Part shown: piece by piece, positions 7,729 through 42,188 of the stretch
Numbering within the stretch: the stretch's first letter is position 1
Layout: each line of letters starts with the position of its first letter
Origin: a virus
Length of the DNA: 64,000 nucleotides
Virus record (IMG/VR): IMGVR_UViG_3300034159_000059
Reading direction: 5' to 3' (one strand)
Notes under the pieces: model-generated
Told to the model about the DNA's origin: nothing
Database searches by the model: none
Seen by the model: the letters and a program-made list of their open reading frames with translations, nothing else
Program-made: the position numbers and the translations under genes

Positions 7729-7745
7729 AGCACTTGGAGCACGAC

Positions 7746-8204: not shown

Positions 8205-8208
8205 GTCA

Positions 8209-8237: not shown

Positions 8238-8289
8238 AGGGTGTGGAGAGGGGAATGGTTCTTCTCTCTTTCGCTGTGAGGAGGCGAAG

Positions 8290-8775
8290 GTGACCGTTGC
8301 GCTCGTAGAGGGAGACGACGTGGAGACGGGGAATCCGCACGAGAGGTTGTTGAAAGAAGAGATGTTGCGAGCAGAGATCGCTCGGTTGAAGGCCATGACC
8401 GCGTTGTTCGAGGACATGGGCGCCCTCTTCAAAGGGATGGCAAGTCAAGCAGAAGCAGAAGCTGACGTGGCCATCTGCAAGAAGGAAGAAGTCGAGAGGG
8501 ATAGCAAAGACGTGGATCTGAAGGAGCTCTTGGCGAGCAAGCGCAAGTCGGAGATCGAGCTGGAGATCGCTCGAAATCGAGATCAGGTAAAGCGCATCCA
8601 AGAGCGGACGGAGCAGCACCGACGAGGGCAGCCTCCGAAGAGCCCTTATCGAAAAGATCCAAAGACTTCGGTGCATGCAGACAAGAAGGAGGTGTTGGTG
8701 GACACACAGAGCAGTGCGTCTCTCAAGGGTCCCATTCGAGGACTTGATAAGGTCCCGACGACGGCATCTCCGTGA
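8290..8775 (+). CDS. Coiled-coil hypothetical protein
   Basis: GTG start 4 nt after GAGGAGG; Glu/Lys/Arg-rich heptad-like sequence. Confidence 0.5.
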   Translation: MTVALVEGDDVETGNPHERLLKEEMLRAEIARLKAMTALFEDMGALFKGMASQAEAEADVAICKKEEVERDSKDVDLKELLASKRKSEIELEIARNRDQVKRIQERTEQHRRGQPPKSPYRKDPKTSVHADKKEVLVDTQSSASLKGPIRGLDKVPTTASP

Positions 8776-17108: not shown

Positions 17109-20100
17109 TCAGACCACGAGCGTGAGGCGGATGTAGTTGCAGGGGTACGGGACGTCGAGGGTCACGTCGATCATCACGGTGTCCGGGTTCTCCGGGTCCT
17201 GGATGATGTTGTTGAGCTGCGCTCCGTTGAGGATGCCATTGTCCTTCAGGAACTCCAGCATGCCGGTGATGGTCGTCCCGATGGTGTCGAGGAAGACTGA
17301 GGTGATGTTCTGCCGGCCGATGAAGCGACGGATACCTGCCCGAAGGAACTTGGCGACGAAGTCGACGTCCTTCGTGATCGAGAGCTCTCGCGTCTCGATG
17401 GTCGATGTGTCGGTGGAGAGCTGGTGCCGGCAGAATACCGGTCCGCCCTGCACCTCCTGCATGAGGATGAAGGCACCTCCACCCGCCATCTGATCGAGCT
17501 GCTTCTTGGTGAACTTCTCCGTCCCCACCACCCCGGTGAGGCCGGTCATGGGGTAGTTGGTGAGTCCCTGCTGCGGAGGCAGGCCAGCGATCATGCCTGC
17601 CACGACCGCACAGGCGTAGTAGCCGGGGACTTCCTTCTCCAGACCCGCGACGGTGGTCTTCACCGTATCGGGGAAGAAGGAGTAGGCCCGCCGGTTCGCG
17701 ATGCCAGAGTTCAGCGTCGCGACGGTAGAGGCGACGAGGGAGTAGTCCGGTTTGGCGGGGGAAGAGCCTGCGATCATCAGGCTCGCGCCGCGCACATTCA
17801 TGCTCCAAGCCGCATCGAGGATGTCGGTTGGAAGGGCTACGACCTCGTAGAAGTAGTCGTCGTTCTCTCCGGCCGCGAAGGTGGTACGGAGATTCACGAG
17901 GCCGCCGGTCACCGAGGAGATTGAGTAACGGTAGAAGACGCCGTTCCAGTTGAACTCGATGTAGACGCCATTCGCCACGGTGAAGGGCAGTGACGGATTG
18001 ATTCCGGCATCGACGAGACCAGCTTGAGGCGTGACGTCGACGAGGAGCTGGTCGGCAGTGGCAGTCGAGTTCGCAGAGACGCCACTCACGACCGCCCTTG
18101 GGGCGCGGGTAGTGGGCTGCGTCTTGTTGAAGAGGACGATTCGCTCGCCCATCTCCTCGGGCTGGCTCATCAGCGTGACGTGGGTGTTGAAGAGCTGATG
18201 CACCACATCATTCTGGGTGAGCAGTGCGATGGTGTAGACCTCTTCCGACTCCAAGAAGTCGGCTGCTCTGGCGTAGGCGAGCTCGGTTCCTTCCGGAGCG
18301 GAGCCAGAGATCTCGTCGACCCCGAGGGCACCGACCACGAATCCTGGGCAGTTGAGAAGAGCCAGGTAGGTACCGAAGGCGAGAGGGTTGGCGTCCGTCA
18401 CCGGGTCCATCACCGAGGTGAGGGTGCTGGTGTCTTGGAGATGGACGACTCCCGCGACTGCCGCGGACGCCGAGACATCGCGACGAAGTCCCTTGAACTG
18501 GATGTAGAGAGATGCCGGGCTGGTGGCGAAGTCGAGGGGGTAGCCAGTGACTGGATCGCGGACGAGATCCGGACCGATCACCAGGTTGCTGCTCACATCG
18601 ACGTAGGCGTCAGGATTCGGACGCCCTGTTCCGGCTGTCGCGGTCTGCGCTGCCGTGAAGCCGAGAGCCGTGAGAGCGGTTCCGTCGACGATGTAGACCA
18701 GAGATCCCGCGCCAGCAAGGGTGCTGGTGAGGACGAGGTTCGTCCCCGCTCCGTTCTTCGAAGCGACTGTGCCACCGACGAGCTGGTTGACGGTGTCGAC
18801 GGCGATGTCGAGCGAGGTATCGGTGAAGCCCACATCGTAGACGTGAGCGCCTCGGTCTAGAGAGAATCGGAGGTTCTCTCCAGTGAGCCCAGAGAACGAA
18901 GCGTCGGTTCCGGTACCGCTGGTGTCCGCGCTGGTGGAGTAGCCGAGGACCGTGGCCGCGGAGCTCGTCGCCTTGAAGGTGATGCTCTGAAGCCTTCCCG
19001 TCTTGGCGGTGGCAAGCTTCAGCTTGCCGGAATCGACAGAGGCAACGACGCCCGTGATGCTGACGGCCGCAGCCATTCCGGCGACGGTGGTGACGGGGGT
19101 GGAGCTTGTGAAGGTGAACGTTCCGACTGTCGCGACTCCATCCACCGTGAGGATGTAATCGATCCGGAGACCGGCGAGAGCCACGCCTCCGGACGGATCC
19201 GGGACGGCCCCGCCTTCGACCGAGGCGGCCACTGCTGCGGAAGCCGCAGCCGATCCCGTGACGGTGGACTTGGTTGCCGAAACGGTGGGCGAGAGCCCCG
19301 TTGCCTTGAACCACACGTACTGCGGCGCGAAGGGGGCAGCGTCGATGGGAAGACCGAGAAGAGCGTCGTCGTAGGTCTTCGAGAGGTAGCGGCCTTCCGT
19401 GTCAGCGGTAGAGAGGGCAGCGTCGATGGTGCCCATCCGGAAGCGAGTCGGATCGACGCGAGAGATCTCACCGCTCTTGAGCCGCGTGCCGTCGGCCCAG
19501 ATCTGATCCCCTGCCAGGATCGGGATGCCGTTGGTGCCGAAGGTGATGGCGGCAGAGCGTGCATGCGTCAGCGCGCCTGTGGCGACGTTGATCATGCCGG
19601 CATGAGAGGCCCAGGCCGAGTCTGCCGAAGAGACCCCACCCACGCTGTAGTCGCCACGGAAGAACTCGATCCAGGCGCTCTGTGTGGTGTTGTTCTGGAG
19701 GTTGTATGCACGGTAGCCGGCGCCGCACACCCTCTCTTCGGTTCCGACAGAGCCGACGGAGTTCCAGCCGATGCCGAGAAGAGCATTCGCCGTCCCACCC
19801 GCGCGCACCGTGATTGAGGAGAGCGCCCCGTAGCTCGGAGAGGAGAGACGGACGCCTGTGACGGAATCCCCCGACACAGTGACCGAAGCGATCGCCATCC
19901 CAAAGGCGTTGTTGATGACGGTGACGATGTCGGCCGGCGCGTAAGGAGACGAGCCCGGAAACGGGATGGTCACGTCTTGCGTGGTGTTGGCCGTAGTCGG
20001 CTGGTCGATGGCGAGAACGAGGTTCTGCCCACCGATGGAGAAGCTGGTTCCGACGATGTCGAGGACCGCCTTGGACGCCACATGGCTTGCGACCAGGAAG

Positions 20101-20426
20101 CCTTCTCCAGGATTCATCAGGAGCTCAGCGAGCCGACCTCCTGTGTAGAGGAAGGGACGGATCGAAGCCGTCTGGATGTCGACCTCGTCGATGTTGCCTC
20201 GCGGGTTCGGGAAAGACGAATGGGTGATCGTCTTTCCGAGCTGCGCGTAAGCACCGTACTTCGCCTTCGAGTTGATGGTTCCATCGGAGGTGAGGACGTT
20301 GATGACCTCGAAGGCCGCACCGACGATGACCGGCGCGAGCGTCGGCGTGAGGAACGTCGGCGACGTCTTGCGCGCGGTCTGAATGACATCGACGCCTGGC
20401 CGGGCGATCTCAGCAGTGGCGGCCAT
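17109..20426 (-). CDS. Tail sheath protein (1105 aa, with large insertion domains)
   Basis: N-terminus MAATAEIARPGVDVIQT… and C-terminus …QGGPVFCRHQLSTDTS…YIRLTLVV match the conserved sheath terminal domains; the long Thr/Ser/Gly/Ala middle is consistent with extra insertion domains. Confidence 0.8.
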   Translation of the reverse strand: MAATAEIARPGVDVIQTARKTSPTFLTPTLAPVIVGAAFEVINVLTSDGTINSKAKYGAYAQLGKTITHSSFPNPRGNIDEVDIQTASIRPFLYTGGRLAELLMNPGEGFLVASHVASKAVLDIVGTSFSIGGQNLVLAIDQPTTANTTQDVTIPFPGSSPYAPADIVTVINNAFGMAIASVTVSGDSVTGVRLSSPSYGALSSITVRAGGTANALLGIGWNSVGSVGTEERVCGAGYRAYNLQNNTTQSAWIEFFRGDYSVGGVSSADSAWASHAGMINVATGALTHARSAAITFGTNGIPILAGDQIWADGTRLKSGEISRVDPTRFRMGTIDAALSTADTEGRYLSKTYDDALLGLPIDAAPFAPQYVWFKATGLSPTVSATKSTVTGSAAASAAVAASVEGGAVPDPSGGVALAGLRIDYILTVDGVATVGTFTFTSSTPVTTVAGMAAAVSITGVVASVDSGKLKLATAKTGRLQSITFKATSSAATVLGYSTSADTSGTGTDASFSGLTGENLRFSLDRGAHVYDVGFTDTSLDIAVDTVNQLVGGTVASKNGAGTNLVLTSTLAGAGSLVYIVDGTALTALGFTAAQTATAGTGRPNPDAYVDVSSNLVIGPDLVRDPVTGYPLDFATSPASLYIQFKGLRRDVSASAAVAGVVHLQDTSTLTSVMDPVTDANPLAFGTYLALLNCPGFVVGALGVDEISGSAPEGTELAYARAADFLESEEVYTIALLTQNDVVHQLFNTHVTLMSQPEEMGERIVLFNKTQPTTRAPRAVVSGVSANSTATADQLLVDVTPQAGLVDAGINPSLPFTVANGVYIEFNWNGVFYRYSISSVTGGLVNLRTTFAAGENDDYFYEVVALPTDILDAAWSMNVRGASLMIAGSSPAKPDYSLVASTVATLNSGIANRRAYSFFPDTVKTTVAGLEKEVPGYYACAVVAGMIAGLPPQQGLTNYPMTGLTGVVGTEKFTKKQLDQMAGGGAFILMQEVQGGPVFCRHQLSTDTSTIETRELSITKDVDFVAKFLRAGIRRFIGRQNITSVFLDTIGTTITGMLEFLKDNGILNGAQLNNIIQDPENPDTVMIDVTLDVPYPCNYIRLTLVV

Positions 20427-21200: not shown

Positions 21201-21573
21201 CAGACTCGACCATCTTCTGCTGACGGGTATTCGCGTAGTTCTGAGCGGCCATGAGCCCAACCATGGAGACGCCGAGAAGGGGGTAAAGCACTCGCTGTTT
21301 GAAAGCGGGGCTCATCTGCGGGTACTTGCTCTTGAGAGCGGTAGAGAGGCCCTTGTCAATGAGGGCCGCCGCTCCATGACCTGCTGCATACCCAAGGGCG
21401 TAGGTGGCACCCGACTTGAGGGCCTTCTTCCAGCGGGGGTTCTTCTTGATCGCATCTTCCGCGATCTTCTCGACCTCATCGAGACAAGAAGCGTTTCGCA
21501 GCTCGTTGCGCTGGTCAGCGAAGCGTGCCTTGTGGGTGGCCGAAAAACGACAGGATGTCCTTGTAGTCGGCAT
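21193..21573 (-). CDS. Hypothetical protein carrying an LDEVEKIAED motif; either an overlapped ATG start or expressed by -1 frameshift from the upstream gene
   Basis: The protein-like part of ORF 21193..21741 begins exactly where the upstream gene (21515..22432) ends; slippery G_TTT_TTC at 21542-21548. Confidence 0.3.
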   Translation of the reverse strand: MPTTRTSCRFSATHKARFADQRNELRNASCLDEVEKIAEDAIKKNPRWKKALKSGATYALGYAAGHGAAALIDKGLSTALKSKYPQMSPAFKQRVLYPLLGVSMVGLMAAQNYANTRQQKMVESDE

Positions 21574-22432
21574 CGGGAGAGTCGATGTTCTGGGCGTTGC
21601 GGAAGTTCCTCTCGGAAGCAGGGACCAGTCCCTGAGCATCGATGTTGAGGGGAATGGAGTACTCGATGTCGCTTCTCGGGACCTCATGGAGCTGAAGCTC
21701 TTGATGAACGACAGCTCTAAGTCTCTGGGTTGGCACAACATTCACTACTCGCCAACGCCTATTCTCTGACTCGATGAGTATGTCCCGGGGGGAGACGGGT
21801 GGGAAGGATGAACACCGTGCGGCGGTGTTTGATGGCTGGGTCTCCCCCATGGCTTGAAGAGCCACCTGCTTCGGGTTGGGGTCGAATTGGATGAAGATCT
21901 CGACGGGAGAGAGGTAACCCCCAAGCCATCCTGTCCCAAAGCATGGGAGATGGTTGGACCGAGCGATGCGGTTCAGCGTGGCGTCGTAGCAAGAGCAACG
22001 AGGACCGAACGTGCGCGCTGGGAACAACCAACTACGACGCCCGACGAACTCCCGGAAGAGTTGGTCTTCTTCCCGAATGATGGCGGAAGCGAGGATGTCT
22101 GGTGCCGCTTCTGAGGAGGCGGTGGGGCCCACCTCGGCTGTCTCATTCGTGCGCCGATCTACGATCCGAAGCTTGTAGAAGAACTGGCGCCACTTGTGGA
22201 GCGCGGGAACGCGATTGTCTCGGAAGCGATACAGGTCGCGGAAAGGCCCACCCATGACAGCATACGGCCCCATCGCTGCCTCAGAGCGCAGGACGAAGAA
22301 GTCGTAGTTGTAGATCTCGTGGCTCTTCAGATCCGAGTCTGTAGACGGACCCCTCACCGTCGAGATTTCCCAGAAGACGTCCAGGAAGTCGATGGAGAAG
22401 GAGCGTACCCAGAGCTTCGTGACTGTGAGCAC
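21515..22432 (-). CDS. Hypothetical tail/baseplate protein
   Basis: 305-aa ORF between the fiber and sheath genes. Confidence 0.5.
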   Translation of the reverse strand: MLTVTKLWVRSFSIDFLDVFWEISTVRGPSTDSDLKSHEIYNYDFFVLRSEAAMGPYAVMGGPFRDLYRFRDNRVPALHKWRQFFYKLRIVDRRTNETAEVGPTASSEAAPDILASAIIREEDQLFREFVGRRSWLFPARTFGPRCSCYDATLNRIARSNHLPCFGTGWLGGYLSPVEIFIQFDPNPKQVALQAMGETQPSNTAARCSSFPPVSPRDILIESENRRWRVVNVVPTQRLRAVVHQELQLHEVPRSDIEYSIPLNIDAQGLVPASERNFRNAQNIDSPDADYKDILSFFGHPQGTLR

Positions 22433-23803
22433 TTACGGATCCTTGAGCTTCGAGAACTGCTGGAGGTTGCTGGTGTTGGGGATGTAGGAGCCGGTGATGG
22501 AGTAGACCGCGATCGGGTTCGTCTTGTTGATGGCGTCGTTGCGCGTCGGGTAGATGCGGATCTTGCCGCTGATGAGGTTGTTTCGAGCGTCGAAGTCCGT
22601 GTCCTCGATCTGGACGTTCTCCCCACAGAGCCCAAGAACCTTCGTCAGGTTATCCTTCACGGAGCTGAGCCAGACGTTGAAGTCCGAAGGGATGAGATCC
22701 GTCTTGGCCTTGATGTCTGTCAGGGTTCCGGACGCCGTACCAAGGCTACCAAGACCTGAAGCAACGGAGTCGAGAGCAGCTTTAGTAGAATGGAGGTCGT
22801 CTCCAGTCCCGAACCCCACCCCTTCGATGGAGTCGAGCTTTCCTGAGATAGCAGCGAGGTCGGTGGCAGGTGTTCCCTTGACCCCAGCAATGGCAGTCGT
22901 GATCACTTCCTGAGAGGTGGTGATCGCCCCTTCGATACCCGACTCCGCAGTTCCGAGGGCGTCTGTGACTACCGTCTGCGAAGAACCGATCTGGGAGAAG
23001 ACCTCTGAGAGATCCTTGCTGGAAGCGCCTTTGAGGCTTGCGACTGCTCCTGAGACGTCTCCAGAGCTCGCAGGTGCGGCGGGGATGAGGTCCGTCTGAG
23101 CCTTGATGTCCGCGGCCAGTGTAGAGGTGTTTGAGTTGATGCTCGTCACGGCACTCGTGACATCCCCTGTCGTAGCCGGAGCCGCAGGAAGGTTGTCTGT
23201 CTTCGCCTTTACCGCGAGCACATCCGTGTCTACTTGGGTGAGGTCTTTGGAAGACGCTCCCATGATAGCGGCCTGTGCCGAAGTCACGTCTGCTTGAGCC
23301 GCAGGCGTTGCGGGAAGATTGTCTGTCTGGGACTTGACTGCGAGAACGTCGGTATCGACCTGAGAGAGGTCCTTGCTTGACGCACCCTTGATGCTGGTGA
23401 CGGCGCTTGTCACATCACTCTGGGAAGCAGGGGTAGCAGGCAAGTTGTCGGTCTTGGTTTTGACTGCCAAGACGTCGGTGTCGACTTGAGACAGGTCCTT
23501 GTTCGAGGCGCCTTTGACTCCTGTCACTGCGGCATCGATGTAACCAGTGTTGAAGAGCTGGTCCTGGTCCTTGAGAGTGGCGCCGAGAGACACTCCTCCG
23601 GCAGAGACGCGGAAGATGACGTTGTGAACACCTGTCGGAGCAGCCGACCAGTCGTAGTCGAAGTAGTACCACCCGTCCCCGCTCGTGACCTCCGTAATGG
23701 TCGGAGGCGTAGAGAGGTCAGCCAAGGTATCGAGCCGCTTCCAGATGCTGAAGGCCGGAGTGAGGCCGGTCTTCCCTGCACCGAAATCAAGACCGTATCG
23801 CAT
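22433..23803 (-). CDS. Tail fiber-like protein with KTDNLP repeat units (paralog of 9148..10785)
   Basis: 4-5 tandem units …KDLSQVDTDVLAVK(T/A)KTDNLPATPA(S/A)QSDVTSAVTSI…; shares identical peptides and near-identical DNA with the other fiber. Confidence 0.65.
   Translation of the reverse strand: MRYGLDFGAGKTGLTPAFSIWKRLDTLADLSTPPTITEVTSGDGWYYFDYDWSAAPTGVHNVIFRVSAGGVSLGATLKDQDQLFNTGYIDAAVTGVKGASNKDLSQVDTDVLAVKTKTDNLPATPASQSDVTSAVTSIKGASSKDLSQVDTDVLAVKSQTDNLPATPAAQADVTSAQAAIMGASSKDLTQVDTDVLAVKAKTDNLPAAPATTGDVTSAVTSINSNTSTLAADIKAQTDLIPAAPASSGDVSGAVASLKGASSKDLSEVFSQIGSSQTVVTDALGTAESGIEGAITTSQEVITTAIAGVKGTPATDLAAISGKLDSIEGVGFGTGDDLHSTKAALDSVASGLGSLGTASGTLTDIKAKTDLIPSDFNVWLSSVKDNLTKVLGLCGENVQIEDTDFDARNNLISGKIRIYPTRNDAINKTNPIAVYSITGSYIPNTSNLQQFSKLKDP
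22990..23515 (-). repeat. Intragenic tandem repeat (about 126-nt units) encoding the KTDNLP repeats
   Basis: Repeated …ggaaggttgtctgtcttcgcc… unit visible in the DNA. Confidence 0.5.
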
Positions 23804-23823
23804 GTGTTACCTCTCCGACGTTT

Positions 23824-24720
23824 TTACGCGCTCACCTGCTGAAGAGCCTTGGACTGCAACGCCTTCTGCGCGAACGGACCTGCGGCGGCACCGCCGATGC
23901 TCCCCTTGACAGCCCCACCTGCCATAGAGCCTAGGAGAGAATGACCCTGTCGCTCCTGCGGGGAGCGCATCATCTGCCTCGCCCCACCTGCTGCTGCACC
24001 GAGGCCTGCGCCGACGAGAGCGCGCTGCTTGAGAGACGTACCCGCTGTCGCCTGCAAGGCACTACGTGCGATGGGAGCTGCCTTGGTCACTGCCGCCTTG
24101 GCGGCTGGGAGAACTTTCCCTGCGATCCCGGCTAGCATGCCCGGGATCGCTCCTTCCTTCTCCATTAGCGCCCGCATCAGCTCCACCGAAGACTGCTTGA
24201 GCTTCTCGTCCGAGGCCGGGCCTCGAATGACCCGATGCGCGAGACGGCCGGCGCCGTATCCAGTCATAGCCCCTACGACGGGGTTCTTGTTCTTAGAAGC
24301 TTGCCGGAGCGCTCCGAAGAGAGCTCCAGTGTTGCTCCATCCCTCGGCGCGTTCCCTCTTGGTCTTCGGGGCCCGATCCTTCTTCTCGGAGAGCTTCTCC
24401 ATGTCCGCTCGGGCCAGATCACGAGCCCATCCCGCAACCGTCGCGATCTTGAGAGCCGAGACCTTCGTGAAGCCGGTCTTCTTGGCGGTGTCGGACATCC
24501 TCTGGATGGCCTCCTTCATACCGCCAACGGACTCATGCATCTTGGTGAGAGCCTTCTTAGGGGCCGGAGGGTGGAGAAGTGCCGGCTTGACTGGAGGCAC
24601 CATCCCCTCCTTCACGATGGCGGAAAGCTGCTCCACTGAGAGGGTCTTGAGGTAGTCGACGGGCTGCGAATCTTCTTCGAGGTACGTCGCGAGCAAGGTT
24701 TCGTAGTTCATTTTGTCCAC
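23824..24720 (-). CDS. Gly/Ala-rich basic hypothetical virion protein
   Basis: 298 aa; low-complexity G/A/K-rich; composition like 44654..45553 and 60375..61106. Confidence 0.5.
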   Translation of the reverse strand: MDKMNYETLLATYLEEDSQPVDYLKTLSVEQLSAIVKEGMVPPVKPALLHPPAPKKALTKMHESVGGMKEAIQRMSDTAKKTGFTKVSALKIATVAGWARDLARADMEKLSEKKDRAPKTKRERAEGWSNTGALFGALRQASKNKNPVVGAMTGYGAGRLAHRVIRGPASDEKLKQSSVELMRALMEKEGAIPGMLAGIAGKVLPAAKAAVTKAAPIARSALQATAGTSLKQRALVGAGLGAAAGGARQMMRSPQERQGHSLLGSMAGGAVKGSIGGAAAGPFAQKALQSKALQQVSA

Positions 24721-25184
24721 TCCCGAATCTGACGAGCGAGATCGATCCCGAGACGAGCGCCTGTGGCGCCGTAGGTCAGGCTTCCTGCCACCGGGTGTTC
24801 AGCCATGGCCTTTGAGACTCCGGCATACGCACCGGCCACTGCATCCTGAACCTTGTGAGAGAAACCTGGCTTCTTCCCCTTCTTTTGAAGCTTCTCTCCT
24901 TCGGCCTTCTGAGCAGCTTGCATCTGCGCTGCATCAAGCTCTTGAAGAGAAGGCTTTCCCTTCCACCTCTTCACGGTCGCAGCGCCGAGACCTGTGGCAA
25001 GAGCTCCACCGACCAACGCTCCGAGAATTTCTGGACGATTCGCCTGGGCCATCTGCTTTCCTGCGTTGAAGGCCTTATGGACGAAGTCAGAAGCCACTCC
25101 AGCGGTCTTCGCTTTGGCGAGTAGCTCGGGAAGGGGGTCGTTCATGTAGGCGAGCCTAGAAGAGAAGAAGTTCGGTGGGAACAA
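24708..25184 (-). CDS. Hypothetical basic protein
   Basis: 158 aa; contains DPLPELLAKAKTAG, resembling the FDELEKIA motif family. Confidence 0.45.
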   Translation of the reverse strand: MFPPNFFSSRLAYMNDPLPELLAKAKTAGVASDFVHKAFNAGKQMAQANRPEILGALVGGALATGLGAATVKRWKGKPSLQELDAAQMQAAQKAEGEKLQKKGKKPGFSHKVQDAVAGAYAGVSKAMAEHPVAGSLTYGATGARLGIDLARQIREWTK

Positions 25185-25201
25185 GCACGTAGACAGGAAG
25201 G

Positions 25202-26683
25202 CTACTTTGCTACAGTCCCTCCGACCGTATCATTAAGAGGCGTCCCGCCATACACCGCAGCGTGGGTTGCTACGGTAGACCCGGCCTTCAGATCCCCTGC
25301 TGTCCCGGTAACGGTGTTGTTCGCTCCCTCAAGTACGTGACCCCAGTGGTTCACCAGAACGCCAGCTCCACCACTCCCCGATCCCGAAACGTTCGAGTAC
25401 TTCATGAAGGCTCCGTTCTCGACCGTGACTCCGTTGGTGACACAGTTAGTGATGGAGAAGGGACCAGTGATGCCCAGGTAAGAAGCGCCAGCCACATCGA
25501 TACACTCACTCCCGGAAGTGGACCCTACGATCTGACCACCCATTCCTTTCGTGGCGATGATGGCCATGTATCCGTAGGGGCTGACGAAAAGAGTCGTTCC
25601 TTTGACGTCCGGATTCCATAGGTACGTCGTGTTTCCTAGTCCGGAGAACGTGGCCAGGTAGAATGAGCGAATGACCACGTAGGCATTCAAGATGTAGCCG
25701 GGACCTCCGATCCCAACCGAAGGAGAGCCGCTCGAAGAGGCGAACACCGCCCCGGCTCCGTTCAACGCTATGTTAGCGATGATGTCTTCTGCTGAGTTTG
25801 GGATCCACGCTGGAGCAACGCCAACATAACCAACCTGATGGCGAGCCGCTCCTCCGAAGGAGAAGCTGACACTCCCAGTGCCATCGAAGTAGGTGACGTA
25901 GAGGAAGGTGTTGACTCCTTCCTCGGTGGTCACTGCGATCCCGGTAAACTTCAACTTATAGAGAATGAGACTTGCGAAGCCTTTCGGACGAGTCCCGCTC
26001 AGGAAGAGGTAGTTACCGTTTCCCTGTCCAGAGATGATGGAGCCCGGAGACTCGATGACGAACTTGTCCCCCACCACAGGACGGGCGGAGGCTCCGTTGT
26101 CTCCTGCATTCATGGAGAAGTTGCCGTCAACCGTGTTGCCGGTAACGATACGAACGTACCCTGCTGCTGCTCCAGTCGTGAATCGCAAGAAGTAGGTGTC
26201 GTACTGGTTCAGCGTCAAGCTCAGGGTACTGTCCTGCACCTTGATGACAGCACTGCTGGTGCCTACCGTCACTCCAGTAATGGTCCTCTGACCGAGGCCC
26301 GAGTCGATCATCGTCCCCTGGATCGCGCACGGCTCTCCTTTAGGGCCCAGAGGGGTTCCGAAACGAACCGTATACGATCCGGTGATGGAGAACGTACCTG
26401 CTGTCAGGTTGACACGACACTTCCCTGTCCAGAAGTTCGGTACAGCCTCGATCGCTGCCTGGAAGGTCCTCTTCGGTAGGGTTTGGGTTCCAGGCCAAGA
26501 GTCATTCCCGTTGACGGGATCGGCGTAGACGCCAACGTCTCCTTGGTAGACCTTGAAGTCGGGAGCTAGGAGCGGGACGAGAGAGTTACCGGACTGATCC
26601 ACCGCGCTGCTTTTGATGACCTGTGCTAGCACCAGGCTAGGAAGCAGCGACCCTAGAAACAGGAGTCTCTTGGATGAGATCAT
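25202..26683 (-). CDS. Secreted right-handed beta-helix (DUF1565/pectate-lyase-fold) protein; putative depolymerase/tailspike
   Basis: Signal-peptide-like MISSKRLLFLGSLLPSLVLAQV then VYADPVNGNDSWPGTQTLP…FQAAIEAVP (DUF1565 N-terminal signature); tandem paralog of 26680..28125. Confidence 0.6.
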   Translation of the reverse strand: MISSKRLLFLGSLLPSLVLAQVIKSSAVDQSGNSLVPLLAPDFKVYQGDVGVYADPVNGNDSWPGTQTLPKRTFQAAIEAVPNFWTGKCRVNLTAGTFSITGSYTVRFGTPLGPKGEPCAIQGTMIDSGLGQRTITGVTVGTSSAVIKVQDSTLSLTLNQYDTYFLRFTTGAAAGYVRIVTGNTVDGNFSMNAGDNGASARPVVGDKFVIESPGSIISGQGNGNYLFLSGTRPKGFASLILYKLKFTGIAVTTEEGVNTFLYVTYFDGTGSVSFSFGGAARHQVGYVGVAPAWIPNSAEDIIANIALNGAGAVFASSSGSPSVGIGGPGYILNAYVVIRSFYLATFSGLGNTTYLWNPDVKGTTLFVSPYGYMAIIATKGMGGQIVGSTSGSECIDVAGASYLGITGPFSITNCVTNGVTVENGAFMKYSNVSGSGSGGAGVLVNHWGHVLEGANNTVTGTAGDLKAGSTVATHAAVYGGTPLNDTVGGTVAK

Positions 26684-28125
26684 TTGGTAGCAAAGCCTCC
26701 AACGGCGTCTGTGATCGGGGTGCCGTTCCACACGTTTGCGTGAGTGCCGACGGTTGTGCCTACCAGGATCTCTCCGGTAGCCCCTGTGACGGTGGTCGTG
26801 TTGGCAACAGATTTCGAGATACCAGAACCACGAAGGACTGCGATCCCAGCCCCACCATTTCCTGTACCAACGATACCGCCTTGATCAGACAAAACGGACC
26901 TGTCTTCGAGATCGATCCCGTGGCCTGCGTTGTTACTGAGATCCAAATCCATCATTTTCTCGCAAACGGATCCAAGCTGGATTCTTAGCCCAAAGGTCGA
27001 AGAGGAGTAGATACGACCCTTGAGGCCGCTTACCCCTACATGTCTAAAGTCAGAAGTCGGACCGATGTCGATATAGCAACCTTTGGCATCGACAGCGTAC
27101 ATAGAAACGAAAGCTCCTGGACCTAGAAGACGAAGACCGAGACCTCCTGGTCCGCGGAAGAGGAAATACCCAGAAATCATGACGCCGGGACCGGCCGTTT
27201 CCACTCCCCAGGGCCTGTTTGCCGAGGAGTGGATGTATACACCAGATCCACTTACAGCGGCATTTACAAACAGATCATCATCAACCAGTAGCGCCTGCAC
27301 ACCAGCGTTGAATTGGGAGTACGAACTAAACATCAGTGTTCCGTTGGTCGTGAGATCCCATTCCGACAGCAAGGAGTACATCACGGTGCTGGTGGCTACA
27401 TTCATGTAGCCACCAGACATGACGAACTTCACGCCATACGAGGCCCAAGAAAGCCCTGTCAGAATGAGACTCGACGAGATCGTAATCGTAGCGGAGGGCT
27501 TCTCTAGTACGAAGTGATCCCCTACAGCCGGTCTTTTGGAGGCCCCTCCATCAGGAGTCAGCCACTCAAACTGACCTCCGACCGTGTTGCCACGCACCAG
27601 TCTTGTGTACCCGGCTGCTGTGCCGGTCGTCATACGCAGATAGTAGCCAACGTACTGATCAACCGTAGGTGTGAGGGTAGAGTCCGTGATCTGGTATACG
27701 TAGTTGGTCGTGGTGGCGCCGACGGAGGACACTGTCCTCGTCCCCAAACCAGAGTCAGTCAGGGCAGGTCCAACAAGGACGCAGGCTCCTGCCTTTGTTC
27801 CGACTGAAGTCCCGGCGCGCATCGTAAGCGCGGTCACGGCGTAGGAACCAGCGGCCAGCATGATACGACACTTACCTGTGTAGGTTACAGGAAGTAGAGC
27901 TGCCGCAGCACTCAAAGTTTGTACAGGAGAACCTTGAGTCCCTGGGTTGCTGTCCAGGCCGTTCGTCGGATCAACATAGACGTACACATTACGTTGAGTC
28001 GGTCGAAAGTCAGGGGCGGAGATGACTACCGAAGACTCTCCGGAAGGGCTGATCGCCGAGGGAGAGTACACCTGAGCCTGCGTAAAGAGAGGGATCAGGG
28101 CAGTCAGGAGCAGAGTCTTACGCAT
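26680..28125 (-). CDS. Secreted right-handed beta-helix (DUF1565-like) protein, paralog 2
   Basis: MRKTLLLTALIPLFTQAQV signal peptide then VYVDPTNGLDSNPGTQGSPVQTL; AGGAGA RBS before the ATG at 28125. Confidence 0.6.
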   Translation of the reverse strand: MRKTLLLTALIPLFTQAQVYSPSAISPSGESSVVISAPDFRPTQRNVYVYVDPTNGLDSNPGTQGSPVQTLSAAAALLPVTYTGKCRIMLAAGSYAVTALTMRAGTSVGTKAGACVLVGPALTDSGLGTRTVSSVGATTTNYVYQITDSTLTPTVDQYVGYYLRMTTGTAAGYTRLVRGNTVGGQFEWLTPDGGASKRPAVGDHFVLEKPSATITISSSLILTGLSWASYGVKFVMSGGYMNVATSTVMYSLLSEWDLTTNGTLMFSSYSQFNAGVQALLVDDDLFVNAAVSGSGVYIHSSANRPWGVETAGPGVMISGYFLFRGPGGLGLRLLGPGAFVSMYAVDAKGCYIDIGPTSDFRHVGVSGLKGRIYSSSTFGLRIQLGSVCEKMMDLDLSNNAGHGIDLEDRSVLSDQGGIVGTGNGGAGIAVLRGSGISKSVANTTTVTGATGEILVGTTVGTHANVWNGTPITDAVGGFATK

Positions 28126-28135
28126 GCGCCTTCTC

Positions 28136-28585
28136 CTACTGGGAAGTAGACTGCCTGGAGTATGTACCAAGGAGCCGAACCGTCACTCCCCCGCTGCTGA
28201 CGGTGATCCCGTTAGACACTCCCATCACGCGACCTCTTGGAGGAACGCTGTAGCTGTCAGAGACGCAGATGGTTTTTCCGGCACAGCGGGATGGGATGGA
28301 GAAGGATTGAGAGCCTTGGAACCACTTCAAGCTGGAGTCGTAGAAGTAGATATCGATCTGTCCTGCACCAGATAGAGTCTGACCGGTGTCAGAAGTCACG
28401 ATAATGAAGAACGAGAGGAGGTTTGCCGCATCCAGCCCGGCAGTAGCACTGGTAACGCTCGTGGGAGCAGTGCCTGTGAGCGCGGTGTCTATGCTGGTCC
28501 AGTCTCTCTTCCCAAAGTCATCGGGAGAGCCTCCGACGAAGGCAAGGAGGAAGATCGCAGCGATCGAGATGAAGAGCTTCTTCAT
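28136..28585 (-). CDS. Small secreted protein (signal peptide)
   Basis: MKKLFISIAAIFLLAFVGGSP leader; 149 aa, Thr/Ser-rich. Confidence 0.5.
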   Translation of the reverse strand: MKKLFISIAAIFLLAFVGGSPDDFGKRDWTSIDTALTGTAPTSVTSATAGLDAANLLSFFIIVTSDTGQTLSGAGQIDIYFYDSSLKWFQGSQSFSIPSRCAGKTICVSDSYSVPPRGRVMGVSNGITVSSGGVTVRLLGTYSRQSTSQ

Positions 28586-28589
28586 GGCT

Positions 28590-28718
28590 CTACTCCTTGT
28601 AGAGAAGAGTGAACTTGCTGCTGCTGGTGTCGAAGACGAGAGAGACGAAGACGACGGAGTGCGCGTTGAGAAACGTGACAGCTTCCGTCATGGTCCGGAA
28701 GTACTGGGTCTTATACAT
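28590..28718 (-). CDS. 42-aa hypothetical protein (MYKTQYFRTMTEAVTFLNAHSVVFVSLVFDTSSSKFTLLYKE)
   Basis: AGGAGGA RBS 4-5 nt upstream of the ATG; its stop overlaps the RBS of the next gene. Confidence 0.4.
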   Translation of the reverse strand: MYKTQYFRTMTEAVTFLNAHSVVFVSLVFDTSSSKFTLLYKE

Positions 28719-29193
28719 GCTTCCTCCTTCGGAAGACGTTCTTGACGGCCCTGGCTGGTCCGGTGAAGACACCCTTCCCAAACTCTTCCCCTGCCGCGCG
28801 GGCAGCAGGCCTGGTCGCCTTCTCCATCTCTCGTGAGATGGTCTTCTTGAGCATTCTCGTGCTGCTGGGGACGACGGATCCCACTGTGGCGGCCTGGAGT
28901 AGGGAGGGTAGGTATTCCTTCTCGATCCGCTTGTTCCGGAGCTTCTTCGACTCTTCAGGCGTGAGCCGGGCACGCTCGTCAGAAAGGCGCTCGTGCTTCT
29001 CTTTCTTCACAGAGCTGCTGAGGCTTGCGCCAGCACCTGCGGCTCCAAAGAGGGCCGACTTGGGAGCCTTCTCCAGAGCCTTCTTGCCTGCCTTCATGGC
29101 GCGGACCTTGAGACGAGAGACTGGGGTGAAGGTCTTAGCGATCTTCTCCAGTTCATCGAACAGACCGTCGACCAGTTGAGTCTGCATCACCAT
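28711..29193 (-). CDS. Basic hypothetical virion protein with N-terminal LFDELEKIA motif
   Basis: MVMQTQLVDGLFDELEKIAKTF…; Lys/Arg-rich. Confidence 0.5.
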   Translation of the reverse strand: MVMQTQLVDGLFDELEKIAKTFTPVSRLKVRAMKAGKKALEKAPKSALFGAAGAGASLSSSVKKEKHERLSDERARLTPEESKKLRNKRIEKEYLPSLLQAATVGSVVPSSTRMLKKTISREMEKATRPAARAAGEEFGKGVFTGPARAVKNVFRRRKHV

Positions 29194-29750
29194 TCACCGT
29201 AGAAGTTGTTCACGAAGCGGTACTCAGAATGGATGCCGCCTCCCCAAGCACTCTCGATGTTGTAGGCCACCTTGAGGCGCTGCTTCTTCTCCTCGTAGGT
29301 GTTTCGAAAGAGCTGGATCCAGCTCTGGATGAAGGGAGTCTTGTCGTTGATGCCGACCTGAATCCCTCCATCCGAGAACTGAAGATGGTTGCGTGTCTGA
29401 AGCAGACCTACTGATTCGAGCAGGCAGATGACTGTGGCCCGCACTAGAAGATGGCGCGATGGGAAGTTCCCGATGGTGTGTCTCGTGAAAGGAGGAGTGG
29501 TGTTCCAGTCATCGAGAGCATCGAGGATGGCCCAGACGATCTGTCGGTTCGAGCTCTCTTCACCCGCGATGAGCCGGTTCAGCTCTGCGTAGTCGCGGGT
29601 GAAGAGACGAACCTGGTTCACGAAGTTGTTGAGCTCCAACTCCGCATCTGGAACCTGTGCTTTCTCGATGGGCGTGAGAGAAGGAGTGGGAAGCCTGTCA
29701 CCGGCACCCATGTACCCCGCACCGCTTGGGAGCTTCTCATAGTCGTCCAT
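29187..29750 (-). CDS. Hypothetical structural (neck/head-completion region) protein
   Basis: 187-aa ORF. Confidence 0.5.
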   Translation of the reverse strand: MDDYEKLPSGAGYMGAGDRLPTPSLTPIEKAQVPDAELELNNFVNQVRLFTRDYAELNRLIAGEESSNRQIVWAILDALDDWNTTPPFTRHTIGNFPSRHLLVRATVICLLESVGLLQTRNHLQFSDGGIQVGINDKTPFIQSWIQLFRNTYEEKKQRLKVAYNIESAWGGGIHSEYRFVNNFYGEW

Positions 29751-30479: not shown

Positions 30480-30713
30480 TCACACCTTCTGCTGGACTTC
30501 CGTCGCGGTCTTCTGGACGCCCTTGAGGACCTTGTCGATCTCCCAGGCGGCGACGAAGAAGTAGACCGCCACTCCCACGGCCAACGCGAGGGCGGCCTTC
30601 ACGATGGTGGAGGAGAGGATGAGCGTGAGCAACATCGGGACGAAGGTGAGGACGAGGTAGACCACAACCGCAGACACGGCTGCGGCGATGAGCTTCTTGA
30701 GATTCGGGGACAT
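30480..30713 (-). CDS. Small two-TM membrane protein (holin-like topology)
   Basis: 77 aa with two hydrophobic helices and a charged C-terminus. Confidence 0.45.
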   Translation of the reverse strand: MSPNLKKLIAAAVSAVVVYLVLTFVPMLLTLILSSTIVKAALALAVGVAVYFFVAAWEIDKVLKGVQKTATEVQQKV

Positions 30714-30855
30714 GAAGCAACCTCCAGATGGTTAGGGTACAGACTGCGCGATTGTGAGAGTAGCGCGTTCCGGCCTTGGTGGGAAAAGACAACCTGAAAG
30801 AAGAACGGCCTGGTCAAAGAAGACCAGGCCGTCCGCAGGTCCCCGCTGGGCCAGC

Positions 30856-32037
30856 TTAGAACTGGCTGACGTTCGGGTACTTCAGGCCCTGGTCGACCTT
30901 GTTGTTCACCGGGGCGAAGAGCGGGTCGCTCTCGTCCACCGGGATCTCGGCGCCGTAGCCAGTGTCGGTCAGGCCCGGGGTCACCGAAGCGGAGTAGAGC
31001 TCCAGCTTCACGATGGCGGCCACGTTGCCGATTCCGATGCCGATGTCCTCCCAGCTCTGCCAGGTGATCAGGTTCGCGATCTTGTCGATGTAGAACTTGA
31101 CCTGGTTGAGGACGTAGCTGCGGCCCAGGAACCCCGGCGCGGTGAAGCAGTAGATGTTGCCCTCGCGCAGGATCTCCGTCTTGATCGTCCGGATGTACTT
31201 CAGGCCGGTGATGTTGTCGCTCTTCCAGCCCTCGGTCGAGGTCTCTCCGGCGATCGTCATGCCGACGTCCTGGATGGTCCAGGAGCTCACCTCGTCGAAG
31301 TCGGGCTCGGTCATGAGCATCCGCTCCGCACGGAGGTGCCGGCGGTGGAGCAGCTTCTTCAGCTTGATGAAGTCGGTCTTGAGGACCGGGTAGATCGAGA
31401 AGTCGTCCGCGCCGTTGTTCAGCGAGGCCTGGAGAGCGCCTTCACCCTTCACGATCGAAGAGCTGATCACCGCGCTGGCGTTGACGTTGGTGGCGCTGAA
31501 CTTGATCGCGGCACCAAGGGTCTGCGCCTGCGCCTGGAAGGCCTGGACAGCGGCCTCGGTGAAGAGCAGGAAGGTCCTATCCTCGACGGCCTGGATGTCC
31601 TTCACCGTGTTCTCTTCGATGATCTTGGTGATGGGCATCTCGTAGGCCAGAAGCTCCTGCTCGTACTTCTCGAACTTCTCGCTGGAGATCGTGAAGAAGG
31701 GGATCTCGTAGCGGGGCGCCCGAATGAGCCGAGCCGTGGGCTGACCACGGAAGGTCATCGCCATGGCGCGCGAGTTGGGCTCGATGTCCACGATCTTCAC
31801 GAGCGTGTCGTGGTTGACCGAGCGCTGGCACTCAGACCGCTGCACCGGCTGAGGTGGGATCACCTTCTTGTGGAACGACACTTCACGCAGACGGTCTCGG
31901 ATGTAGTTCCCGCCGAACTCGGCGATCTTGTCCTTGGCCTCTTGCGTGGCGACCTTCTCGAAGAAGAGGTCGTTGAGGGCTTTCTGGGGAATCATTCTGG
32001 TCTCCTGTTTTGTCGAAAGAGTTGAAGGTCTCTTCAC
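30856..32037 (-). CDS. Putative major capsid protein
   Basis: 393-aa ORF downstream of scaffold-like acidic/coiled-coil genes; size and position fit an HK97-fold MCP; no motif-level proof. Confidence 0.5.
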   Translation of the reverse strand: MKRPSTLSTKQETRMIPQKALNDLFFEKVATQEAKDKIAEFGGNYIRDRLREVSFHKKVIPPQPVQRSECQRSVNHDTLVKIVDIEPNSRAMAMTFRGQPTARLIRAPRYEIPFFTISSEKFEKYEQELLAYEMPITKIIEENTVKDIQAVEDRTFLLFTEAAVQAFQAQAQTLGAAIKFSATNVNASAVISSSIVKGEGALQASLNNGADDFSIYPVLKTDFIKLKKLLHRRHLRAERMLMTEPDFDEVSSWTIQDVGMTIAGETSTEGWKSDNITGLKYIRTIKTEILREGNIYCFTAPGFLGRSYVLNQVKFYIDKIANLITWQSWEDIGIGIGNVAAIVKLELYSASVTPGLTDTGYGAEIPVDESDPLFAPVNNKVDQGLKYPNVSQF

Positions 32038-40265: not shown

Positions 40266-40306
40266 AGAAGGTCGGGCTTCCACACCCGACCTTCTTCCCT
40301 TTTAGG
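40266..40306 (+). terminator. Rho-independent terminator closing the + island
   Basis: AGAAGGTCGGG-cttccacac-CCCGACCTTCT followed by TCCCTTTTAGG; overlaps the terminase stop. Confidence 0.7.
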
Positions 40307-42188
40307 TATCTTCCGGCGCTGCGTAGTTGGTCTTCTGCGTCGGGTTCAGCACGTCATGGCGTGGATTCCGAATCATCGAGGCGAGGAAGCAGAAGAGGAT
40401 GGCGTGGAACGAGTCGTCCGTCATGTCCGGCGCGTGCTTGTACTGCACCTGACGCTGCGTCTCGTTGTACTCGCTGAAGATGTTCAGCATGTCCTTCGCG
40501 AACGGATCTTCGAACTGAGCAAAGTCCGGGAAGCGGAAGACGTCTAGACGCTTGATGGCGCTGAAGATGTCGCTCATCACCTCTGTGCGATGGACGAGGT
40601 AGCGACGCAAACCATCTTCCCAACGCACCTTCTGGCTGGGCTGGGAGTACTGGTACTTCACGATTCTGCGAGAGCCGAAGGTGCGGGCGAGCTGATCGTT
40701 CGGGTAGTGGCCACCACCGTAGTCAACTCCGACGAGCTGCACGTTCCAGTACTTGATGAGCTTGCTGATGAGGTCGATCTGGGCCGAAGGTTCTACCTCT
40801 GGGCCCTCAAAGCGGTGGATGTAGAAGATGTTGAAGAAACCATGAATGTAGGCGCCTAGCGCGATGACGGAGTACGAACCTTCGCCAGTACCCCAGTCGA
40901 TTCCCGCGTAGACCGGAGAGATGTCTCCGAGAGCTGCTTTGATGGCATGAAGACCATCCTGGTCCATGTACTGACCAGGGACGCAGTTGTCGATGATGTT
41001 CTTGCGCGTGAGGGGACGCGAACCAGAGTCGTAAGAAAGCCCCAATACCTCGTTGTAGAAAGTGGCGCGCGGGAACTTGACGTACTTGTCTAGGATCTCA
41101 GACCAAGGGATCCAGGGCACCATGAGCTGCGGGATCCGATACCCCTCGTAGAACTCCTTCAACTTCTGCTTCACGCCCTCATTCATCGAAGCCCACTGCG
41201 CCATCGGGTGCATGGGATCGATACGCTGTTTGCACTTGGAACAAATCGGACCATCCTGCCCAGGGTCGATGTTGTCCTCAGTGAGGATGTTCCAGAACCA
41301 GCTCGACGGGTTGTTGGGAGTGCCGTGCCGATCGCAGGGCACCACCCACTCATTCTGCGTTGAGAAGTTCTGCCAGTAGTGCTCGATGGTGTTGTCAGTG
41401 CTCTTCGGCGTGCCGGAGTAGAGGAAGAGCTTGTAGTGCGAGTGGGACGCGCACTCTTCGATGACGGGGATGTTGTCGGTGATGACATCCTGGATCTCGT
41501 CTACCAGGATGAGATCAGCCGGGATGCCTCTGGTACGGTCGGCGTTGTGGTAGGCGTATCGAAGCGTGATCTTCGAACGGTTGATGAACTGCTTCTCAAA
41601 GACGTTGTCGGAGAGCTTTGAGGTAGTCCAGGCCTTCAAGATCTCCGACGTCTCGATGGGCTCCTTGAGACGGTCCGCCGAGAACTTCTTCGTCTGCTGG
41701 TTCGTCGGAGAGACGTAGAGAACGTTGAAGGCGTTGACGATGCAGCAGTAGGCGAGACACTTGTTCCCGAGCAGCGTCGACTTCTCGACCTGGCGCCCGC
41801 ATTTGTAGAGAGTGCGACGTGCTGGCGTGTCGTAAGGAAGACGGAGGTACCGTCTTCCGTCGAAGCTGAAAGGGACGTGTTTCTGAAGCTCCTTGTTCGG
41901 AACCCGGATGGCGAACTCGACAAACTGAGAAGGAGGCACTCCGATGAGTTGAGCTTGTCTCTGCTGAAGCTCGCTCTCGTCCAGGAACCCTTCTTCGACC
42001 TCGGAGCGGTAGTCCCACTCTTCGCGGAGCTCAGGATACCCGCTCTCGGAGATGACGACGTCCGAGTCTAGGCGTAGGTACTCATCATATGGAAGGGTCA
42101 GCATCCGACAGGAGTCCTCATCATGGCGCCCCCAGGTCTTGCCTGGCTCAACTCGTTCTCGATCTCGACTGGAGCTGCACTCGACCAA
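40302..42188 (-). CDS. terL: Terminase large subunit
   Basis: 628 aa; ATPase Walker B-like …LILVDEIQDV… and a C-terminal nuclease region GIDWGTGEGSYSVIALGAY typical of large terminases. Confidence 0.9.
   Translation of the reverse strand: MVECSSSRDRERVEPGKTWGRHDEDSCRMLTLPYDEYLRLDSDVVISESGYPELREEWDYRSEVEEGFLDESELQQRQAQLIGVPPSQFVEFAIRVPNKELQKHVPFSFDGRRYLRLPYDTPARRTLYKCGRQVEKSTLLGNKCLAYCCIVNAFNVLYVSPTNQQTKKFSADRLKEPIETSEILKAWTTSKLSDNVFEKQFINRSKITLRYAYHNADRTRGIPADLILVDEIQDVITDNIPVIEECASHSHYKLFLYSGTPKSTDNTIEHYWQNFSTQNEWVVPCDRHGTPNNPSSWFWNILTEDNIDPGQDGPICSKCKQRIDPMHPMAQWASMNEGVKQKLKEFYEGYRIPQLMVPWIPWSEILDKYVKFPRATFYNEVLGLSYDSGSRPLTRKNIIDNCVPGQYMDQDGLHAIKAALGDISPVYAGIDWGTGEGSYSVIALGAYIHGFFNIFYIHRFEGPEVEPSAQIDLISKLIKYWNVQLVGVDYGGGHYPNDQLARTFGSRRIVKYQYSQPSQKVRWEDGLRRYLVHRTEVMSDIFSAIKRLDVFRFPDFAQFEDPFAKDMLNIFSEYNETQRQVQYKHAPDMTDDSFHAILFCFLASMIRNPRHDVLNPTQKTNYAAPEDT

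Follow-up and report, generated by a model that had tools for sequence, protein, structure and literature searches.

To our knowledge, phage beta-helix depolymerases have been described as spikes attached to the virion or as free enzyme released at lysis. AlgG-type enzymes are periplasmic beta-helix analogues, and T5 Llp and Cor are phage exclusion lipoproteins with signal peptides. WceF of Pantoea stewartii is an exported tailspike-like beta-helix glycanase that acts on the exopolysaccharide (EPS) of its own cell (PMC7949094). The endolysin Lys44 of phage fOg44 and the antiholin RI of T4 are signal-peptide proteins, a precedent for the export of some late or accessory proteins by tailed phages via Sec (PMC6116005; PMC8385771). 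Viral NosD-like beta-helix proteins, one of them with a signal peptide predicted by SignalP, were reported in 2026 from viromes of alkane-oxidising enrichments, with adhesion, lysis assistance and cell-cell adhesion listed by the authors as hypotheses (PMC13452462). Here we describe three consecutive genes in a 64,000-nucleotide stretch of viral DNA (IMG/VR virus record IMGVR_UViG_3300034159_000059; the whole stretch is referred to as the window). They are named in transcription order, A encoding a small protein and B and C a pair of paralogs with a predicted beta-helix fold. None of the papers retrieved was found to describe a conserved exported beta-helix cassette or the partner family to which A belongs.

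On balance, we favour the reading that A-B-C is a mobile cassette of accessory genes within the late operon, and that its products are exported via Sec into the host envelope. All three proteins are probably exported rather than built into the virion, and what is new is probably the repurposing of phage beta-helix fibre domains as exported proteins. This reading is based on the anatomy and conservation of the leaders, on cysteines specific to leader-bearing proteins, on the lack of a virion anchor, on absence from close relatives and on independence of genomic position. A preliminary description of this DNA, made from the letters alone, had suggested that these are exported proteins and not normal tailspikes. 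That view is favoured here, given that the cassette is missing in 27 relatives of the phage, one of which has a weak match to part of B, and that homologs elsewhere occupy varied positions, including a replication module.

Genes, start sites and leader peptides

The three open reading frames (ORFs) lie at 25202-28585, all on the minus strand in the order A-B-C; they are present as first described, and their starts are supported. The small protein, which also carries a leader, had been said to follow the two paralogs; in transcription order it comes first. The features of the locus are as follows.

28593..28598, minus strand: ribosome-binding site (RBS) of A, AAGGAG, 7 nucleotides (nt) 5' of the A start, read from the sequence
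28136-28585, minus strand: gene A, 149 amino acids (aa), begins MKKLFISIAAIFLLAFVGGSPDD; small partner protein with an N-terminal hydrophobic leader
28529..28585, minus strand: leader of A, aa 1-19, MKKLFISIAAIFLLAFVGG; anatomy MKK-LFISIAAIFLLAFV-GGSPDD
28129..28136, minus strand: RBS of B, GGAGAAGG, overlapping the A stop codon, with its GGAG core 7 nt 5' of the B start
26680-28125, minus strand: gene B, 481 aa, begins MRKTLLLTALIPLFTQAQVYSPS; leader, cap motif, inserted beta domain and predicted right-handed beta-helix
28075..28125, minus strand: leader of B, aa 1-17, MRKTLLLTALIPLFTQA; anatomy MRK-TLLLTALIPLF-TQA, with predicted cleavage between TQA and QV
27937..27990, minus strand: beta-helix N-terminal cap motif of B, NVYVYVDPTNGLDSNPGT
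25202-26683, minus strand: gene C, 493 aa, begins MISSKRLLFLGSLLPSLVLAQVIKSS; paralog of B
26624..26683, minus strand: leader of C, aa 1-20, MISSKRLLFLGSLLPSLVLA; anatomy MISSKR-LLFLGSLLPSLVL-(V)LA, with predicted cleavage between VLA and QV
26483..26536, minus strand: cap motif of C, VGVYADPVNGNDSWPGTQ

The genes are tightly packed: B starts 10 nt past the stop codon of A, and the ATG of C overlaps the TGA stop of B (ATGA), with GGAGG 12 nt upstream of the C start. The annotation itself could be at fault, with the true starts lying downstream and the leaders being untranslated or out-of-frame chance hydrophobic stretches, and in-frame GTG codons do occur within the leaders or shortly behind them (V19 in B; V18 and V28 in C). 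However, no in-frame start 3' of the leaders in A, B or C has an RBS, those GTG codons included, whereas the ATGs upstream are preceded by GGAG-type sites and lie where genes abut tightly or overlap. Independent gene calls on a public 109-kb contig that includes the window (Logan SRR10968273) predict products of the same lengths, 149, 481 and 493 aa, and leaders are found in homologs from at least seven unrelated contigs. The preliminary description had held that a better start downstream of the hydrophobic segment would refute export. A check for such starts found none with an RBS, and as the independent gene calls agree, we consider an artefact very improbable. The exact A protein is also present on a 209-kb contig. 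For a further fragment, P0002, a look-up by exact sequence returned no record.

Leaders were judged by rule, that is by signal-peptide anatomy, and by conservation. All three have a K or R among their first 6 residues, and the hydrophobic run is 11-16 residues long. In B and C the hydrophobic core spans 11-13 residues, a Pro stands at -6/-7, and positions -3/-1 hold small residues; by rule, these two leaders show every element of a Sec signal cleaved by signal peptidase I (SPase I): a basic n-region, an h-region of 7-15 residues, a helix breaker and small residues at -3/-1. The leader of A, the best 10-residue Kyte-Doolittle window of which is 3.18, has the n- and h-regions of such a signal; because its c-region and cleavage site are ambiguous, it may be either a cleaved signal peptide or an uncleaved anchor. 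Residues 1-21 of B have a pLDDT below 50 in an AlphaFold2 (AF2) model computed with a 10-sequence alignment. A crude scan of ORFs for hydrophobic N-termini flagged only A and B as leader-like in the minus-strand block of about 55 kb, with C, at 2.18, slightly short of the 2.2 cut-off.

Other kinds of leader were considered and set aside. Neither a lipobox nor any Cys, within the leaders or directly behind them, is present in A, B and C, which argues against a lipoprotein (SPase II) signal, and there is no RR beside the h-region at the supported starts, as a Tat signal would have; Arg runs occur only in longer TTG/GTG extensions of the ORFs, which overlap the preceding genes. A signal-arrest-release type of anchor was judged unlikely for B and C, the leaders being strongly hydrophobic with AxA-like cleavage sites. 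The same anatomy as in B and C is found in seven close homologs (P0004, P0005, P0008, P0011, P0013, P0015 and P0016), the leaders of which align, and in homologs from five further loci (L002-L006); in all of these it is kept as a feature and not as a sequence. Most homolog leaders start M-(K/R)-x, with one basic residue, and P0004 and the homologs of L003 and L005 have a near-identical version of the C leader core, LLPSLVLAQ. The leaders, of which those of the paralogs were initially called cleavable-looking, appear genuine, given that the closest homologs carry them and that leader-bearing members of the A family are biased towards even cysteine counts, as described below.

Fold and homologs of the paralogs, and the partner family

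B and C are full-length paralogs, 34% identical from end to end (E 8e-70), as the description of tandem paralogs had it, and the VYVDP-type signature quoted for them is present in both (VYVYVDPTNGLDSNPGTQ in B and VGVYADPVNGNDSWPGTQ in C). Their fold is predicted to be a right-handed parallel beta-helix (pectin-lyase-like), with a conserved inserted beta domain at about residues 93-210 of B. The neighbours of the beta-helix in Foldseek searches include LKA1 gp49, AP22 gp54 and the K1 lyase in PDB, and phage tail spikes in BFVD; most are glycan-active enzymes or tailspikes.

Searches of Pfam, PHROGs and NCBIfam with A, B and C gave only sub-threshold matches, to the cap motif or the leader. The label DUF1565 (PF07602) could not be upheld for the proteins as wholes: membership takes 20.3 bits over most of the 257-position profile, while B reaches 12.1 bits (E 0.12) and C has no match. 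As the match of B is limited to profile positions 2-40, "DUF1565-type" fits the N-terminal cap motif only. The homologs P0005 and P0015 are likewise sub-threshold, over the same N-terminal 27-41 positions. Besides DUF1565, the cap motif of B has sub-threshold matches to a PL9 rhamnogalacturonan lyase (5olq, E 0.14) and to the LIC10774 family. The Pfam family Beta_helix (PF13229, cut-off 25.9 bits) has no match in B or C; P0013 passes at 33.5 bits, and P0004, P0008, P0005, P0015 and P0014 are sub-threshold.

A word-indexed homolog search returned a single match, P0001, with B and with the profile alike. In this leaderless protein of 790 aa, the C-terminal 430 residues align with B over its entire length, and an N-terminal extension of 260 residues is present. 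Its gene follows those for Baseplate_J and Tail_P2_I, which is a tail-fibre position, and the homology counts in favour of a fibre ancestry of B and C. Only about 25 residues lie between the predicted cleavage site and the beta-helix cap in B and C, and so both appear to lack a virion-anchor domain. Judged by the presence of such a domain, the two would not be virion tailspikes or fibres, in contrast to P0001 with its long extension.

An exhaustive profile search extended the family to 1,646 relatives, of which 54 have E <1e-30. The closest full-length relatives, the seven named above, begin with leaders (e.g. MRFLLLVALLPSLVLAQA), and about 140 more distant relatives among the 150 listed are leaderless, suggesting that the leader marks one clade of the beta-helix family. 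Inside this clade two short-range Cys pairs are found together, DSNxC...PC in the cap and T-C-x6-C-V-G, neither of which is seen in any leaderless family member, and some of the clade have additional Cys-rich C-terminal domains. Behind the leader is a conserved short segment, PSGxS...APxF. The motif GGTFTG, which we take to resemble a tail-fibre motif, occurs in the post-leader segment of P0008 and in that of a leader-bearing fibre protein at locus L011.

Leader-bearing homologs of B and C were found in the five IMG/VR loci L002-L006, which share no other protein with the window, save an A homolog in L003. In L002 and L003 (with a P2-like baseplate), L005 (podovirus-like) and L006 (siphovirus-like, with a 1199-aa protein resembling a tail tip or host-specificity protein), the homolog is encoded between the phage's own tail-fibre gene and the genes for holin, endolysin and spanin. 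In L004 it precedes a gene for an o-spanin-like lipoprotein and is itself preceded by a portal-like gene and a gene for a 271-aa leader-bearing protein. The homolog closest to B and C in length, P0005, is encoded within the replication module of L045, flanked by genes for an SNF2 helicase and DNA polymerase A, and there too the preceding gene encodes a leader-bearing protein, of 144 aa. In all, homologs of the family occupy four different kinds of genomic position. The distribution of the cassette is patchy and position-independent, and it recurs in unrelated uncultured phages. Because o-spanin-like lipoproteins and GH108 endolysins are present (L002, L004 and L006), the hosts appear to be diderm, and a Sec leader would mean export to the periplasm. 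Scans of genomes and metagenome contigs with the B/C profile found nothing. A back-translated QALTRAAPTL pattern had three matches (Pirellulaceae, Arthrobacter and Beutenbergiaceae), all of which were rejected as chance and give no clue to the host.

The protein A has a conserved C-x5-C pair (C101 and C107) and belongs to a family of 69 members with no match in Pfam, PHROGs or PDB, profile searches of PDB and PHROGs included. A leader is present in 43-44 of the 69, and leaderless members start a few residues before the conserved motif ESQALTRAAPT. Even numbers of Cys in the mature part are found in 39 of 42 leader-bearing members that contain Cys, versus 11 of 26 leaderless ones (Fisher p 7e-6, a statistic that takes no account of phylogeny). 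This bias fits disulfide bonding outside the cytoplasm.

In L003 the A homolog (42% identical) is encoded directly upstream of the B/C homolog, and in L010 and L011 A homologs are upstream of other leader-bearing fibre-like proteins. At L014 (8001-10885) an A homolog heads five consecutive leader-bearing proteins, including a GDSL/SGNH esterase of the lipase family. Such esterases are the other type of enzyme associated with tailspikes. As a side observation, the L014 run resembles a phage "secretome island". L012 is mixed, with a leaderless A-like protein followed by a leader-bearing fibre-like one. There, at 7653-8402, the leaderless A-like gene (starting with GTG) follows in the same frame directly after the TAA of a gene for a 115-aa membrane protein, and readthrough would yield a membrane-anchored A-like fusion.

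The variable island and the rest of the window

The window phage is large and myovirus-like. Besides a baseplate-V-like gene, and a fibre cluster near 9-13.6 kb that contains a LamG protein, its landmarks are the following.

17109-20426: tail sheath gene
22433..29186, minus strand: variable island with A-B-C, in the late operon, bounded by g187 (29187-29750) and g305 (21515-22432)
30856-31995: major capsid protein (MCP) gene
40302-42188: large terminase (TerL) gene
58263-60368: portal-like gene

The three genes lie outside the fibre cluster, between the capsid and sheath genes. Their assignment to the tail module therefore has to be revised to a variable island between head and sheath genes, apart from the baseplate and tail-fibre cluster. 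A blastn search of the region against INPHARED phages had no match, and tblastn with TerL found only relatives below 30% identity, so that the phage has no cultured relative in these searches and they give no clue to the host.

Relatives were taken as 27 IMG/VR contigs with an MCP 46-80% identical to that of the window, and were searched by tblastn with the window proteins. The genes g162, MCP, g97, g187, g305, g253 and sheath are conserved in them. None of the 27 encodes A or C, and the one match to B, weak and partial, is to a different leader-bearing protein in L021. This protein, of about 560 aa (MKRVGIASSILLVIGFAALAGNPTPSPPPD...), is found in L021 (5383-7035), L025 (6177-7847) and L044 (12301-13995), where its gene occupies a different site, between g97 and g187. 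The protein is distantly related to B within the same family (hhalign 81%, E 1e-5), and the cap Cys pair is present in it too. By position, too, the proteins would not be virion tailspikes or fibres, A and C being absent from the relatives and the homologs having no constant place in a structural module.

The GC content of third codon positions (GC3) is 0.57-0.67 for A-C versus 0.80-0.92 for the MCP and sheath genes. From the patchy distribution and the lower GC3, the trio appears to be accessory cargo in the late operon. No sigma-70-like promoter was found, and no terminator flanking A-C; a moron, in the sense of a self-contained transcription unit with its own flanking promoter and terminator, was therefore rejected.

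B and C could instead be ordinary virion fibres or neck appendages assembled in the cytoplasm, comparable to phi29 gp12, with the hydrophobic N-terminus as a buried attachment or assembly segment. The location between head and sheath genes, beside a gene for a repeat-rich fibrous protein of 456 aa, would suit this, as would the position of the leaderless homolog P0001 in a baseplate and tail-fibre cluster. Against this, the leaders have the complete tripartite anatomy of a signal peptide, conserved as a feature rather than as a sequence. The short distance from leader to cap leaves no room for an anchor domain, A-B-C is not kept in the relatives, one homolog is encoded in a replication module, and the Cys pairs and Cys parity point to an oxidising location. 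We therefore regard ordinary fibres as improbable.

Several other features of the window were noted. The 456-aa fibrous-looking protein is encoded just downstream of C (22433-23803, minus strand) and has about five protein-level repeats, GASSKDLSQVDTDVLAVKxKTDNLPATPA; Tandem Repeats Finder detected no DNA-level repeat in its gene. Three Ala/Gly/Lys-rich proteins with glycine-zipper-like hydrophobic segments flank A-B-C (23824-25184 and 28711-29193, minus strand), and weak homologs of one of them, of 145 aa, recur in the variable island of several relatives. The only strong hairpin found is terminator-like and lies directly after the MCP gene (30803-30834, minus strand; 13-bp stem with 9 GC pairs and a T-rich tail). 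It is followed by a gene for a 77-aa protein resembling a two-pass membrane protein (30480-30713).

Farther away, a 2103-aa ORF fuses RNA polymerase beta and beta-prime (50014-56325, minus strand; Rpb2_6 at residues 575-929 and Rpb1 domains 1-5 at residues 1177-1880). As it lies between the baseplate-V-like and portal-like genes, it would be a one-chain RNA polymerase of multisubunit type in the structural region. At the left end of the window is a plus-strand block of small membrane protein and lipoprotein genes, in which a membrane-anchored GGDEF diguanylate cyclase is encoded (6545-7429, plus strand; Pfam GGDEF E 3e-35, with a weak DUF4118 N-terminus). A 332-aa protein with a lipoprotein-type leader, MKYSFAMFTMLVASLFFTAC, is encoded at 207-1205 (plus strand) and is followed by several small multi-pass membrane proteins; together these may be a block of genes acting in lysis or on the envelope.

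Probable export, possible virion attachment and comparison with known systems

A number of observations weigh against an exported accessory cassette. The trio is embedded in the structural late operon without a promoter or terminator of its own, and in L023 and L032 the same island holds leaderless LamG-like fibre proteins, which suit a fibre slot. Total Cys counts fail to separate leader-bearing from leaderless beta-helix members, the Cys-parity statistic of the A family ignores phylogeny, and no prophage copy turned up when representative genomes were scanned. In B and C no catalytic motif could be recognised and no Pfam enzyme family matched, and the fold also occurs in non-enzymatic adhesins. 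Finally, at L047 (5068-8969) a leaderless A-like protein is encoded in a podovirus head module, in the order terminase, P22-type portal, scaffold, A-like protein, leaderless 176-aa fibre-like protein, MCP, decoration-like protein and SU10-type adaptor. In view of this head-module position, the A family may have begun as a virion protein, and both families may be structural in origin.

The lack of a catalytic motif and of a Pfam enzyme match also bears on whether B and C are enzymes, the fold being common to lyases, hydrolases, epimerases and non-catalytic adhesins. They might be exported as non-catalytic binding proteins or adhesins of the surface or periplasm, which mask receptors in the manner of conversion or change adhesion and aggregation, an option also raised for the viral NosD-like proteins (PMC13452462). 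The structural neighbours are nevertheless mostly glycan-active enzymes or tailspikes, and an A homolog clusters with an exported esterase at L014. Long-term conversion is less likely for a phage that, like this one, appears to be lytic and large. Taken together, a purely non-catalytic role seems doubtful.

Embedding in a structural operon and the leaderless fibre-like genes of the island leave some room for virion association, whether conventional or by docking after export. In the latter case, A, B and C would reach their fold under the oxidising conditions of the periplasm and join released particles only at or after lysis, with A as an adaptor and the short mature N-terminus of B and C as a docking peptide, and would thus be true receptor-binding spikes. 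This would reconcile the leaders and Cys pairing with the position in the operon and with the fibre-like genes in the island of relatives. The conserved segment PSGxS...APxF behind the leader counts in its favour, as does GGTFTG in P0008 and the L011 fibre protein. Moreover, A and the fibre-like protein after it both have leaders in L010 and both lack them in L047, with L012 mixed. On the other hand, the cassette is also found among replication genes (L045) and as part of runs of exported proteins up to five long (L014), and it is absent from 27 close relatives that keep all core genes. We know of no precedent for tailed phages completing their virions outside the cytoplasm. Export followed by attachment is therefore unlikely in our view.

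Under the favoured reading of an exported accessory cassette, B and C would be beta-helices sharing ancestry with the distal domain of phage tail fibres or tailspikes, with a cleavable signal peptide in place of the N-terminal domain that anchors these to the virion. A would be a small beta-rich partner, exported or anchored in the membrane, and the whole cassette would derive from virion fibre and adaptor proteins that were given Sec leaders. Once exported, B and C would bind or cleave a polysaccharide on the surface or in the periplasm of the infected cell, be it O-antigen, capsule or EPS. Destruction or masking of receptors would then lead to superinfection exclusion and keep progeny from sticking to debris, loosening of the matrix could also aid release, and the two diverged paralogs could provide two specificities. 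The functional step, whether receptor destruction, masking or matrix loosening, may apply by analogy with WceF, with periplasmic AlgG-type enzymes and with exported phage lysis proteins; that B and C may be depolymerases acting on EPS or capsule is something we purely infer.

More broadly, we tentatively propose that tailed phages of uncultured diderm hosts export a dedicated, virion-derived set of proteins, composed of a small adaptor-like protein and of tailspike-like beta-helix, fibre or esterase proteins, that serves either (a) receptor destruction or exclusion or (b) as spikes that dock at lysis. Option (a) may be a widespread and previously unrecognised receptor-destroying or exclusion system acting from inside the infected cell. 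Option (b) alone, in which spikes oxidatively folded in the periplasm would dock at lysis and so complete the virion extracellularly, strikes us as distinctly unlikely.

If export is correct, some phages would act on the host envelope from inside during infection, by means of a conserved, horizontally mobile cassette in which such domains have Sec leaders. This would bear on how progeny escape trapping by debris, on the block to superinfection, on the dismantling of capsule and EPS barriers, and on where to seek depolymerases that fold in an oxidising compartment. Two uncharacterised families are defined: that of the 149-aa protein A, and, within a beta-helix family of about 1,650 members, the clade with leaders. 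Both exist in apparently exported and cytoplasmic versions, and thus offer a comparative system for the localisation-driven evolution of phage structural proteins.

Compared with tailspike and fibre depolymerases (LKA1 gp49, AP22 gp54, the Klebsiella K1 lyase, cyanophage Pam1 and phi29 gp12), B and C have no anchor domain, carry a Sec-type leader, are not conserved among relatives and are encoded outside the baseplate and fibre cluster. The C5-epimerases AlgG and AlgE4, PL6 and PL9 lyases and RbmB of Vibrio are periplasmic or secreted enzymes of cells, whereas B and C are encoded by a phage and have no family-level sequence match to them. Exported phage proteins such as Lys44, RI, Llp and Cor are small lysis regulators, lysins or lipoproteins, whereas B and C are fibre-derived beta-helices of about 480 aa without a lipobox or a peptidoglycan-hydrolase domain. 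They do resemble exported lysis proteins in that several B/C homologs adjoin lysis cassettes. The viral NosD-like case is alike in being a virus-encoded right-handed beta-helix with a signal peptide, but it comes from just one contig, with dockerins and in an archaeal (ANME) setting, and no conserved partner or cross-phage cassette is described for it (PMC13452462). WceF is chromosomal, belongs to an EPS biosynthesis cluster and has a Tat signal, whereas B and C are phage-encoded with short Sec-type leaders. The likeness lies in function, and with its exported tailspike fold WceF is the nearest functional analogy to B and C.

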